Assembly: GCA_951406725.2 (NCBI GenBank)
Contig: OX597825.1
Coordinates: forward strand, 13,392,001-13,456,000
Source: Octopus vulgaris
Taxonomy: Eukaryota
DNA length: 64,000 bases
Direction of reading: 5' to 3'
How positions within the stretch are numbered: position 1 is the stretch's first letter; each line of letters opens with the position of its first letter. The position numbers were made by a program, and so were the translations under genes. This document shows, piece by piece, positions 8,166-55,007 of the stretch. The notes below the pieces were generated by a model. It was given only the letters and a program-made list of their open reading frames with translations. It was not told the DNA's origin and ran no database searches.

Positions 8166-8321
8166 TGGATCTTTCCTTTTCCTATGTTTCTGATGAAGAG
8201 CTCCGCTCGAAACGTTAAACTCTCCTTCTTCCCTTCCTTCCTGAGCGTCCAATAACACTATACTTGTTCCACGTCCTCGCATTGTTGTGTTTTCTCTTTG
8301 TGTTTTCATGTTCGGATTAAC

Positions 8322-8322
<1 letters not shown>
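8166..8322 (+). mobile_element. Short hammerhead-bearing element (Penelope-like solo terminal repeat, family P1) in (TA)n
   Basis: Near-identical to 40954-41107; contains the hammerhead at 8186-8220; ends in ggattaac+(TA)n. Confidence 0.75.
8186..8220 (+). ncRNA. Minimal type I hammerhead ribozyme motif
   Basis: gttt-CTGATGA-a-gagc-tcc-gctc-GAAAC-GTT-aaac: canonical core, 4-bp stems I and II, stem III reduced to the palindrome ACGT as described for Penelope-associated hammerheads. Confidence 0.75.
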
Positions 8323-8401
<79 letters not shown>

Positions 8402-30151: not shown

Positions 30152-30172
30152 GTATGTATGTATGTATATATG

Positions 30173-30203
<31 letters not shown>

Positions 30204-30204
30204 G

Positions 30205-30265
<61 letters not shown>

Positions 30266-31194
30266 TTATATATACGTATGAATGCATATATAAGAAAGGA
30301 AAAATAAAAAATGTATGAATATATATGTGTGCGTATGTGTGTATGTGTGCGTATGTATTATATTATATATATATTATATATATATGAGCGTGTGTGTGTC
30401 TGTGTATACTTGGAAAAGGATGCGTGGCGTTCGATCATATAATAATATTAATAATATATAAATATATAAATAATATATATACACACACACACAACATTCA
30501 TATATGTGTGTATGTGTTTATATATATATATATGCATGCGTTCATTCTTTAGCAGATTTCCCATTAATTGAACGACGGCCTAGATGGAGCTTCATCAATC
30601 ATTAATATCCGAATGTTTTATCGATTAAAACGATGCAAGTTCCTATATTAATCATAATTATTTCATCGATCTTGCAAGTTTGTTGGATCGCTAAGTTACG
30701 CAACCTTAAGGAACACAATGTGTGCACATACAACACACACACACACACACACGTGCACATATGCATATACGTACACACACACCATCGCGCTTGCACGTGT
30801 TGGTGGGGGGAGGAAAAGGGGTTTTGTCAACAAAATTTTACAGTAGGAAACATGTGACTTCGTTGCCCTGTATTTTGGGATCGAACTAGAAAAAAATACG
30901 AAGTTCCCATTTGTACGTCTAAGCTACACGGCTATATCCGTACATCTATCTATCTATATCTGTCTATCTATCTTTATGTATGTATGTATGTATGTATGTA
31001 TGTATGTATGTATGTATGTATGTATGTATGTATGTCTGGCTGTCTGTCTATCTATCTATCCATCTGTCTGTCTGTCTATCTATCTATCCATCTGTTTGTC
31101 TATCTATCTATCCATCTGTCTGTCTGTCTGTCTATCTATCTATCCATCTGTCTGTCTGTCTATCTATCCATCTGTCTGTCTGTCTATCTATCTA

Positions 31195-36201: not shown

Positions 36202-36380
36202 AGGCGAAGGAGTGGCTGTGTGGTAAGTAGTTTGCTTACCAACCACATGGTTCCGGGTTCAGTCCTACTGTGTGGCACCTTGGGCGAGTGTCTTCTACTA
36301 TAGCCTCGGGCCGACCAAAGCCTTGTGAGTGGATTTGGTAGACGGAAACTGAAAGAAGCCCGTCATATATATATGTATAC

Positions 36381-36475
<95 letters not shown>

Positions 36476-38964: not shown

Positions 38965-39037
38965 CATTCTCTCTCTCTCTTTCTATATATATATATTTCC
39001 ATTTATACACCCCCACACACACACACACATATATATA

Positions 39038-39232
39038 TAGGGAGAATTCACAAAAACCAAAAGGTGAAGACAGGTGGTGTAGACAACAAACAGATGTATT
39101 GGTATAACGCTCGGGAAGCGAAAAAGTCTTTAACGTTTCGAGCCTACGCTCTTCCACAGAAAGGAACACAGAAAGAAACAAATATAGAAAAGAATGTGTA
39201 GTGGCTAGCGATCTATCGTGGCGAATGCCGGA
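39038..39232 (-). mobile_element. Short hammerhead-like element (family P2) between (TA)n and (TATG)n
   Basis: Minus-strand motif at 39128-39163: cttt-CTGTGGA-a-gagc-gtag-gctc-GAAAC-GTT-aaag (non-canonical core); homologous to 44403-44612. Confidence 0.7.
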
Positions 39233-39265
<33 letters not shown>

Positions 39266-40914: not shown

Positions 40915-41107
40915 TACCGTTGGCGAATTTTTTTCCTCTGTCTTCCCTTCTCTGGATCTTTCCTTCTCCTATGTTTCCGACGAAGAGCTCCGCTCGAAAC
41001 GTTAAACCCTCCTTCTTTCCTTCATTCCTGAGCGTCCAATAATACTACATTTGTTCTACGTCCTCGCGTTGTTGTGTTTTTTTTGTGCTTTCATGTTTGG
41101 ATTAACT
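40915..41107 (+). mobile_element. Family-P1 hammerhead-bearing element (core mutated to CCGACGA at 40977)
   Basis: Near-identical to 8166-8322 but with a longer 5' end; ends in ggattaac+(TA)n. Confidence 0.75.
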
Positions 41108-41125
41108 ATATATATATATATATAT

Positions 41126-41203
<78 letters not shown>

Positions 41204-41454
41204 GTCTGAAGATCGCAGTGTCGTGAAACGCGAATCACAAAGGGAAAAAGTTTAAGTTTAAATAAAAATGATATATATTAAAATAATACATAGGCACACA
41301 CACACAGACACGTTCAAAATACATTTATAGATAGAATTAAACATATATAAATACAAACATCTATACAAACGTTGAAGACTAATAAAACGAAGTGGTAAGA
41401 AAACAGTTGAGAATTTCTCTCGTGTGTAACCGTTTTATGTTTATCTTCTTTGTG

Positions 41455-44370: not shown

Positions 44371-44402
<32 letters not shown>

Positions 44403-44403
<1 letters not shown>

Positions 44404-44612
44404 AAGGGAAAGTTAACGAAAATAAACAAAAGACGAAGGCAGGTGGAGTACAAACAAACAAATGTATTAGTATAGCGCTCAGGAATAGAAATAGAAAAAA
44501 TCTTTTACGTTTCGAGCCTACGCTCTTCGGCAGAAAGATACTCAGAAAAAAAAAAAAAAAACAAGGAGAGAAAAAAATGCTTGTAGGAGCTAACGATCTA
44601 TCATGGCGTCCT
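44403..44612 (-). mobile_element. Family-P2 hammerhead-like element in (TA)n
   Basis: Minus-strand motif at 44500-44539: atcttt-CTGCCGA-a-gagc-gtag-gctc-GAAAC-GTA-aaagat; (TA)n on both sides. Confidence 0.7.
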
Positions 44613-48149: not shown

Positions 48150-49000
48150 CTTGCATTTCAATGCACTCCGTGCATATAGAATTGATTCAGTCATTCGAAG
48201 CAGTTCCAGAGCACGTTTCTTGTACATTCTTCGTGTCACAGAGTACCATTTTTACTAATTTTACCATTCCCTTAAAAATTTATTGTCTCGGTTGTCGCGA
48301 TATTATGGCATCGCATTTGGCGCTCCTTCCAAACGTTGTCTCGTGATTGGTATTCATTGGAAAGAGGATACCGCCATCGCTGTGTCGTTATTCGAGTCTC
48401 TTGTCGTAGTCCACGTAACACACTCTGGGATTTCACACAGGTGAATAGAAATATCCAAGTATTGTTTGAACACGATAACATCTATTTCATGGAGAGCTGC
48501 TTTCATGTTTTATCTTTCTGAAGTAGAACTGTTTAGAATCTGTTCCGATTTAATCGATTTTAGTCCTCTTCTTCAAATAATGAGCATCTCTCTCTGTGTC
48601 GACACAAGAAATAGTTTTGCCTTTCCAGTTTCCTTTTTGTTTTCGCCACCAGTTGGCACGAAATTACTTTCGCTTTCGTCTTTTTCTCCCGCTACGACAA
48701 AGTCTTTTCCTCCTCGGTGTTAGCTGGCTGGTTACGTGCCATCCTGTTTCAAACACACCCGACTCGCCTTTCTCTTTTCCTCTCATTCTCCAAATTGTGT
48801 TCAAGCACCAAATCAAAGCCCCTATACTAACCACTGTATTCAGCCCAGTTCAGTCCTTCCCCAGGACCACTCCCTACAGGAATTTTCTCTCTGCATATAT
48901 GTCATTTGCAGCTATTGCCTTGCACTTGATAAAAATGTTATCAGCATGCATCTCAGCATTCGCAGCAGAACTTTGACGCCCTTAGAATTTAGCAAAGCAT
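48148..49000 (-). mobile_element. Possible decayed LINE ORF1-like remnant
   Basis: Complex, non-microsatellite block with broken minus-strand frames, including [11 protein letters not shown] (possible zinc-knuckle lead-in); no intact ORF. Confidence 0.3.
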
Positions 49001-49029
49001 GACGAAACAATTCTTAAAATCTACAGACA

Positions 49030-49710
49030 AAGCTGTGTGGTTAAGAAGCCCATTTTGCAACCACGTGTTTGCAGGTTCAGTCCCACTGTGTGGCACCTTG
49101 GGCAAGTGTTTTCTACTATAATCTTGAGCACAGCAATAACTTGTAAGTGAATTTAACAGACGGAAACTGTATCGAAGCTCATCACATTTATAGTTGTGTA
49201 TGTGTAGGTGTGTGTGTGTGTGTGTTTCCCTACCCTACTTGACAATCGGTGTTGGTTTGGTTATGTCCATGTAACTATTAATTTCGGCAAAAGAATCCGA
49301 TACATAAGTACCAGACTTAAATAAAAAATAAAATAAAATAACAAAGAGTGGTTGTATACTGTCAACATAACGTGACAGTCCCGTAAAGGGAATTACACCA
49401 CCGCTATTTAGCCCTAGGAAGCATCGACGACGCTTCCTGTCGGCTTTGACACATTTCCTGTGTCCTTATATTTGCGAAGGGGAGGCAAGCAGCGCCACCA
49501 GCTAGGACTAGCAACCTGAAGACATGCATGTTTCTGGGTCTTGCCCGTCATCAGTCCAGGTTAGTAAGGCCCGCTAGCGAAGATACCTGCTAAACCTTCA
49601 TAAAATAAATTAAATTAAATAAATGCCGGGGATGATCTGTTCGGCTAAAAACCTTGAAGGATGTAACCCCATAATGGATACCATCCTACGACTAAAATAC
49701 GTGAGAGATA
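49030..49710 (+). mobile_element. Diverged family-B SINE interrupted at an (AAAAT)n linker by a ~260-bp structured element (49342-49600)
   Basis: SINE head/body 49030-49320 resumes at ~49620 (ggggatgatctgttcggctaaaa). Confidence 0.75.
49513..49562 (-). ncRNA. Type I hammerhead ribozyme motif (intact core)
   Basis: Minus strand reads aacctgga-CTGATGA-c-ggg-caaga-ccc-a-GAAAC-atgcat-GTC-ttcaggtt. Stem I is 8 bp (one G:U), stem III is the palindrome acatgcatgt, triplet GUC. Confidence 0.85.
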
Positions 49711-50023
49711 AAAAGGCTTCCATTATGTGTTGGAACGGGTTAACGAAATGTTGCACTTGCGTGTAACCCGAGCTATTGCACTATCTAACCGTAATCCTTT
49801 AATCCAAGAGAGGCAGATGGAAAATTTTTTGAACTCTGCAGCAGAGCTCGTACGCAGCATTTGTACTCCATTCAGTGCCAATTTTTCTAAGACCATCCAG
49901 ATAAAAATCACCGCATATCACGCTTCCTCGCTGCAAAGATTAGTGTTTTAAAGCGTTTGACTTCTGCCAATTTAGTTCAGAGAGTGCACAGGAGCGATTT
50001 GGTTGCTGTTGTTGTTTTATTTC

Positions 50024-54322: not shown

Positions 54323-54955
54323 GGCGCAGGTGTGGGTTTGTAGTAAGAGGCTTGCTTTCCAACCACAAGGTTCCGGGTTCAGTCCCATTGCGTGGCACCT
54401 TGGTCAAATGTCTTCTTCTATAGCCTCAGACCGACCAATGCCTTGTGAGTGGATTTGGTAGACGGAAACTGAAAGAAGCCTGTCATATATATACATATAT
54501 ATGTGCGTGTGCGTGTGTGTGTTTGTGTTTGTGTGTCTGTGTTGTCTCCTACCATCACTTGACAATCAATGTTGGTGTGTTTACGTACCCGTAACATAGC
54601 GGTTCAGCAAAAGAAACCCGGTAGAATAAGTACTAGGCTTACAAAGAATAAGTCCTGGGATCGATTTGTTCGACTAAAAGCGGTGCTCCAGCATGGCCGC
54701 ATCCAAATGACTGAAACAAATAAAAGAATATACGGGATATGTGTGTGTCTTTCTATGTTTGTCTCACTAGACCTTTTGACAACCGGTGTTGGTGTGTTTA
54801 CGTCTCCGTAACTTAGCGGTTCGACCAAAGAGATCGATAGAGTAAGTACCATGCTTTAAAAAAAAATATTGGGGTCGTTTCATTCGGTTAAAATCAATCT
54901 TCAAGCTGGTGCGCCAGCATGGCCGAAGTGTAATGACTGAAACAAGTAAAAGATA
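54322..54955 (+). mobile_element. Family-B SINE with duplicated tail segment
   Basis: Full copy 54322-54728, second tail 54770-54955. Confidence 0.88.
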
Positions 54956-55007
54956 AACGGTTAAATACACAAGTATAAAACATCAGCAATAACAACACCA
55001 CCACCAT

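Follow-up and report, generated by a model that had tools for sequence, protein, structure and literature searches.

A hammerhead repeat copy inserted into the A-rich tract of a SINE, most likely the pseudo-LTR end of a Penelope-like element

The window analysed here, a 64-kb stretch of microsatellite-rich animal DNA with a GC content of 37.3%, contains a SINE, presumably akin to octopod repeats, that is interrupted within its A-rich tract by a 258-nt insert (Table 1). The insert displays a GC content of 50.2% (measured on 49342-49600) compared with 38-40% in its flanks, and alignment to six other copies in the window discloses that the two flanks are consecutive parts of one SINE, the right flank taking the element up again directly past the A-rich tract; the earlier note's description of a GC-rich insert between AAAAT-type tracts inside a SINE is thereby borne out. 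The A-rich tract comprises 23 nt on each side of the insert, against about 10 nt in uninterrupted SINE copies. The best candidate duplication matches at 13 of 14 nt (49328-49341 versus 49600-49613) and the whole tract at 18 of 23, which is weak evidence because the tract is of low complexity. The insertion site, at this single locus, is of the AT-rich or microsatellite type targeted by Penelope-like elements. The insert is present only once in the 64-kb window and, as the earlier note held, contains no open reading frame, none of its frames reaching 50 codons. In addition, ARAGORN found no tRNA in the window. Elsewhere, at 54330-55000 (+), a complete SINE copy runs straight into the 3′ half of another SINE subfamily, which carries a longer segment also present in the interrupted copy.

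Table 1. Features of the interrupted SINE and of the inserted repeat (positions in the 64-kb window; X1 and X2 are public sequencing runs)
Feature	Positions	Strand	Basis
Host SINE, 5′ part, with internal GT microsatellite	49030..49318	+	70-74% identical to at least 7 other window copies; alignment
Left A-rich (AAAAT-type) tract, likely target site, possible duplication	49319..49341	.	Sequence; 13/14 match with right tract
Inserted non-coding repeat copy, 258 nt; 5′ end right, 3′ end left	49342..49599	-	GC; single copy in window; related contigs
3′ structured module, highest-depth part of the family; likely RT binding/start region (function inferred from PMC11167929)	49342..49470	-	z -4.93; variants; depth
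Type I hammerhead motif	49513..49562	-	Descriptor scan, shuffles; most family variants preserve or restore its pairing
GUC triplet, predicted cut between 49521 and 49520	49520..49523	-	Motif; GUA variant accounting for 5-9% of the depth in X1 and X2
10-nt palindrome forming helix III, with predicted pairing across two ribozymes	49522..49531	-	Self-duplex -13.3 kcal/mol
Right A-rich tract	49600..49622	.	Sequence; match to left tract
Host SINE, 3′ part	49623..49714	+	Aligned to 6 other copies

The hammerhead lies on the minus strand, which the earlier note had left unstated, and comprises the elements of a type I motif: (i) a CUGANGA and GAAA core, (ii) an NUH cleavage site, and (iii) three helices, with the motif ending in helix I. 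Helix I (49562-49555 paired with 49520-49513) contains 8 bp, including one G·U pair, and continues past an internal loop; the core reads CUGAUGA at 49554-49548 and GAAA at 49534-49531; helix II (49547-49535) is formed by three G-C pairs and a 5-nt loop, with a non-standard C·A closing pair; and helix III is palindromic, as in Penelope-like pseudo-LTRs. To judge from the sequence, the helix sizes are closer to the canonical hammerheads of retrozymes than to the minimal type usual in animal Penelope-like elements, with a long helix I, a helix II of four positions, a real helix III, and no extra base after A9. A first descriptor, blind to minimal hammerheads with an extra base, gave this single match in the window, and a relaxed one added motifs at 8190 and 40977, each with a 4-bp helix I, so that the insert still holds the best-paired hammerhead. 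None of 200 dinucleotide-shuffled windows contained a motif with at least 8, 2, and 3 pairs in helices I, III, and II, respectively, and the earlier claim of the best-paired hammerhead of the window, with an 8-bp helix I and a 10-nt palindromic helix III, is confirmed by the descriptor scans and these shuffles; looser hammerhead motifs occurred in the shuffles at 0.085 per window. In Rfam, nothing in the window reaches the gathering score and no hammerhead model matches up to E=10, the only two matches on 49000-49900 being chance ones (E 2.5 and 7.6); pattern scans returned 0 matches in metagenome contigs, viral contigs, and prokaryote genomes.

Animal type I hammerheads are described as following a dimer mode of cleavage (Cervera and de la Pena 2014, PMC4209133). 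This mode fits the motif of the insert, since helix III has a probability of 0.0 in the monomer ensemble, whereas the palindrome forms a duplex of the stability given in Table 1; the catalytic fold of the monomer lies 3.4 kcal/mol above the minimum. In a study on Xenopus, 8 of 9 dimers tested displayed no cleavage (Li, Clavereau and Pollet 2026, 10.64898/2026.07.22.740005), and therefore the motif alone is no proof of activity.

Several other repeats in the window carry hammerhead-like sequences. The copies at 8166-8333 (+) and 40953-41120 (+), 90% identical to each other and unrelated in sequence to the insert, belong to a minimal-hammerhead repeat whose ribozymes (8190 and 40977) comprise an extra base after A9 and an ACGT palindrome in addition to the short helix I, with the core intact at 8190 and altered at 40977; both copies are typical of solo Penelope-type fragments. 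A related repeat, with 74-75%-identical copies at 39036-39240 (-) and 44401-44608 (-), displays decayed minimal hammerhead cores, around which some 34 nt match the 8190 family. Finally, a hammerhead-like core follows a GT microsatellite at 41206-41245 (+), with a 4-bp helix I and broken helices II and III, and the sequence downstream of it has weak copies near 30154-30383 and 36365-36423.

The insert, whole or in part, occurs in 20 of the 24 public runs listed, 8 of them with half or more of its words, under four organism labels and 11 studies. None of the listed runs that contain it is an RNA run, as far as RNA status can be guessed, and no circle junction shows up among the listed runs guessed to be RNA, a blank that carries no weight for or against circles. 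Comparison of all contigs of four runs (X1, X2, X9, and X17) with the insert discloses an abundant family, with 2649 related contigs in X1 and 2437 in X2. In the latter run, depth summed over the 3′ module is about 15,600 times that of the contig of the insert locus, which suggests thousands of copies and no finer figure, because summed depth is no copy number. Along the unit, mean summed depth over 49354-49472 exceeds that over 49507-49557 by 12-fold in X1 and 20-fold in X2, and that over 49575-49591 by about 620-fold and 1430-fold, respectively. This fall is partly due to subfamily divergence, since many copies run on, as loose ends, past 49471 and past 49556-49564 into sequence that is diverged but homologous. 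Few family copies align at the 5′ end of the unit.

The shapes of individual copies were read from the best 24 of 224 loose ends and the best 32 of 5292 pieces. Record 10 of X17 (241 nt) contains only 49350-49430, an 80-nt copy devoid of the ribozyme, between 135 and 26 other letters, whereas in record 17 of X2 and record 26 of X9 the 3′ end runs into about 1970 and 1140 letters of other sequence, respectively. Dispersed, 5′-truncated copies with a common 3′ end are thus seen in three single records and in a depth profile confounded by divergence. Strand inversion occurs in 7 of 8 joints, among the joints listed, and the family contigs include inverted, 5′-truncated copies joined at their 5′ ends: in the two cases in which the direction of inversion was read, record 3 of X1 and a loose end of X17, it is the RNA 5′ sides of the pieces that abut. 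The insert locus itself contains no inversion. Two short go-back joints fall inside the 3′ module, among the joints listed, and none of the 10 joints listed connects the 5′ end of a unit to a 3′ end, although such a joint could be hidden because the A-rich end repeats, within which the 3′ boundary falls, were skipped in the comparison. The locus itself is recovered with its flank at 0 differences in record 32 of X9, from which it follows that this run contains DNA or unspliced RNA; coverage of the right flank is 0 in X1, and that of the left flank is 0 in all four runs. Record 24 of X2 (49539-49740), from the insert-locus contig, has a depth of 24.5, about half that of the other X2 records listed (37-59), which could reflect a heterozygous insertion or a split haplotype.

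Among the variants listed (best 40 of 59), four fall inside the ribozyme: the G·U pair of helix I becomes G-C, the GUC triplet becomes GUA, the C·A closing pair of helix II becomes U-A, and a fourth, rare variant breaks a helix II pair; none alters the core. The helix II mismatch is not peculiar to the insert copy, since C at 49547 is the majority state by depth (80% in X1, 98% in X2). In addition, an X17 contig inferred from two loose ends, the only stretch with a depth of 4.49, displays two double-sided changes in helix I, a further helix I change from G·U to G-C, and a restored helix II base pair. On account of these changes the family ribozyme looks selected, the contig being a single inferred case.

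The structure of the insert RNA is concentrated in its 3′ part. On the minus strand, none of 200 shuffles folds as well as 49342-49470, whereas 48 of 200 fold as well as the hammerhead half (49480-49600, z -0.53); for the whole insert, z is -3.82 on the minus and -2.07 on the plus strand. The earlier note had called the element highly structured, which applies to the 3′ half and fails for the hammerhead half; the hairpins it had named (49416-49438 and 49448-49464) are real, and the minus-strand fold of the 3′ module comprises hairpins at 49448-49464 and 49410-49445. A three-way junction at about 49347-49402 (-), formed with hairpins 49380-49390 and 49358-49379, has no Rfam match, falls within the highest-depth part of the family, and retains its pairs among the variants; as modelled, it is a candidate start structure for reverse transcription. 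Of the 14 variants in the module that reach at least 5% in X1 or X2, again among the best 40 of 59, 10 lie in loops of the minus-strand fold, 3 keep a pair, and 1 breaks one (P=0.035 against random transitions), whereas 3 break a pair in the plus-strand fold (P=0.47). This pattern suggests selection on the minus-strand RNA structure of the 3′ module and is counted in favour of the explanation set out below.

The insert is a dispersed copy of this high-copy hammerhead repeat, most likely representing the pseudo-LTR end of a Penelope-like element that a Penelope-type reverse transcriptase/endonuclease placed in the AT-rich tract of an older SINE. Penelope-like insertions are described as inverted, 5′-truncated arrangements with a common 3′ end and an AT-rich target (10.1101/2021.04.23.441226), and most Penelope-like hammerheads as isolated motifs that probably belong to truncated copies (PMC4209133). 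In the Poseidon element of the anole, reverse transcription is reported to start internally, at an AC-rich stem-loop downstream of the hammerhead, after cleavage of AT-rich DNA and with unprocessed RNA as the main template (Frangieh et al. 2024, PMC11167929). The insert is laid out alike, with 80 nt preceding the cut site, 179 nt following it, and an AC-rich 3′ end. Other repeats with minimal hammerheads, present as fragments in the same window, also count for a Penelope-like origin; the ribozyme itself, which by its sequence looks canonical, and thus retrozyme-like, more than minimal, counts against it.

According to this model, an uncut RNA reading through the hammerhead would be bound by the element's protein at the 3′ hairpin module, and a Penelope-type endonuclease would nick AT-rich DNA. 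Copying would set out from a fixed internal point near 49342, which lies about 180 nt from the cut site in the downstream direction, mostly stopping early and sometimes restarting to produce a second, head-to-head inverted piece. The early stops would explain why many copies have no ribozyme; the insert copy would have extended some 80 nt past the cut site, with a stop near 49599. Cleavage is predicted to take place chiefly in dimers held together by the palindrome, in tandem transcripts of the parent element; the insert copy, which has only one ribozyme and a mismatch in helix II, would cleave poorly and no more than once. No unit-length or circular RNA would be expected from the insert copy, because it has only one hammerhead.

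A coding partner was sought on both the DNA and the protein level. No reverse transcriptase frame is linked to the repeat and no copy was seen at the terminus of a long Penelope-like frame, the arrangement that the earlier note had named as refuting its reading, nothing upstream of 49600 being readable in other copies. Searched against proteins, the longest two ATG frames yielded 4 candidates for 49551-49417 and 1 for 49529-49407, none of them scored, which makes for two weak blanks. Two matches among protein cluster representatives were discarded as artefacts, consisting of translated tandem repeats in which many weak stretches are summed; the first of them gave a pairwise BLASTP E=0.038, on another stretch, and Pfam showed neither RT nor GIY-YIG. 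The frame 49551-49417 (-) opens at an ATG inside the hammerhead core and closes after 45 codons, and the variant at 49547 would create a further ATG in this frame where helix II begins, similar to the ORF of anole Poseidon.

The principal alternative is that the insert is a near-unit-length monomer of a non-autonomous, non-LTR retrozyme, whose arrays elsewhere in the genome would produce linear and circular RNAs and would be copied by Penelope-type enzymes, from a fixed start, into dispersed monomers and truncated pieces. This is possible, if rather doubtful. At 258 nt, the length of this copy, the insert is a non-coding unit with a type I hammerhead within the approximate 170-400 nt of such elements, and its near-canonical ribozyme agrees with them (Cervera and de la Pena 2020, PMC7229834; PMC4209133); the frequent indels of the family fall in loops, the family ribozyme looks selected in the X17 contig with its double-sided helix I changes, and retrozyme families can consist mostly of dispersed monomers and derive from pseudo-LTRs (10.64898/2026.07.22.740005). 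The same study takes two consecutive units as the mark of an active retrozyme, whereas the insert locus presents one hammerhead, in a single copy flanked by SINE sequence. Moreover, the end-to-end joint is missing from the 10 joints listed, the count for fitting two places is 0, 1, 0, and 0 in the four runs, depth varies strongly along the unit, and there are inverted copies as well as short ones devoid of the ribozyme. The retrozyme-like monomer proposed by the earlier note accordingly survives as regards its non-coding nature, its size, and its type I, fairly canonical ribozyme, but is not supported as a circle-yielding unit, in view of the one hammerhead, the copy without ribozyme, the 3′ run-ons, the inversions, and the missing joint. 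A bolder version, in which an undescribed, very abundant retrozyme family of one probable octopod has no autonomous copy, its conserved 130-nt 3′ module recruiting and starting a Penelope-type reverse transcriptase to yield both circles and truncated or inverted insertions, is likewise put forward only tentatively.

Two further readings carry far less weight. A SINE-like hammerhead repeat moved by an ordinary LINE, as for schistosome elements, would account for a short, non-coding copy with a fixed 3′ end, 5′ truncation, and an A/T-rich boundary, and hammerhead-bearing SINE-like elements are described in a review (PMC6765202); it is nonetheless improbable, given that head-to-head pieces both keeping the 3′ part are a Penelope-type trait, that the RNA-sense 3′ end adjoins a T-rich tract of the host SINE instead of a poly(A) tail, and that the window contains no tRNA. 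That the hammerhead is a chance match in an unrelated structured repeat is more improbable still: the blank Rfam result, the ordinary folding of the hammerhead half, and the energy of the catalytic fold above the minimum agree with it, whereas the absence of such a motif from all shuffled windows, the unaltered core among the variants listed, and the fact that 3 of the 4 listed motif variants leave the triplet cleavable or restore a pair argue against it.

Penelope-like elements of Octopus vulgaris have been recently active, with 31 families and 336 recent insertions, ribozymes and retrozymes going unmentioned in the available part of that report (PMC13282606). Among the literature records listed, titles and abstract openings describe no cephalopod retrozyme or hammerhead repeat; Repbase and Dfam, which lay outside this search, may annotate the family. 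As a truncated Penelope-type end piece the insert would be ordinary, since many animal genomes contain such hammerhead fragments by the thousand; its importance would rise if the parent were a short non-autonomous unit. The mobilisation of animal retrozymes by Penelope-like enzymes has been proposed and is undemonstrated; if that reading were true, a family combining a fixed start with a conserved 3′ RNA module and with inversions of the Penelope type would offer a direct test substrate.

Compared with known systems, the insert shares with the pseudo-LTRs of endonuclease-positive Penelope-like elements (PMC4209133; PMC11167929; Craig et al. 2021) (i) a type I hammerhead with a palindromic helix III, (ii) motifs that are single and dispersed, copies that are short or inverted head to head, and an AT-rich target, and (iii) a copy that spans the cut site and that, from the ribozyme to the 3′ end, is structured and AC-rich. 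It differs from them by having no linked ORF, and the distance from the start of helix II to its 3′ end is about 207 nt, compared with 111-118 nt plus an optional 30-40-nt tail in anole Poseidon. Minimal motifs combine a long helix II, a short helix I, and an extra base, none of which is displayed by the ribozyme of the insert. Schistosome hammerhead SINE-like repeats (review PMC6765202) are likewise short, non-coding, and hammerhead-bearing, whereas the insert has no identified promoter-plus-ribozyme layout and the inversions point to Penelope-type insertion. Animal non-LTR retrozymes (PMC7229834; 10.64898/2026.07.22.740005) are alike in their non-coding units of 170-400 nt, a near-canonical, self-paired type I hammerhead, thousands of related contigs, and a likely dependence on Penelope-like enzymes, and their GC content is described as below 50%, so that the insert, at 50%, stands at the upper limit; on the other hand, the insert family includes ribozyme-less copies, and no second ribozyme, tandem array, or circular RNA was seen in it. 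Retrozymes and pseudo-LTRs appear to be related, retrozymes deriving from pseudo-LTRs (10.64898/2026.07.22.740005).
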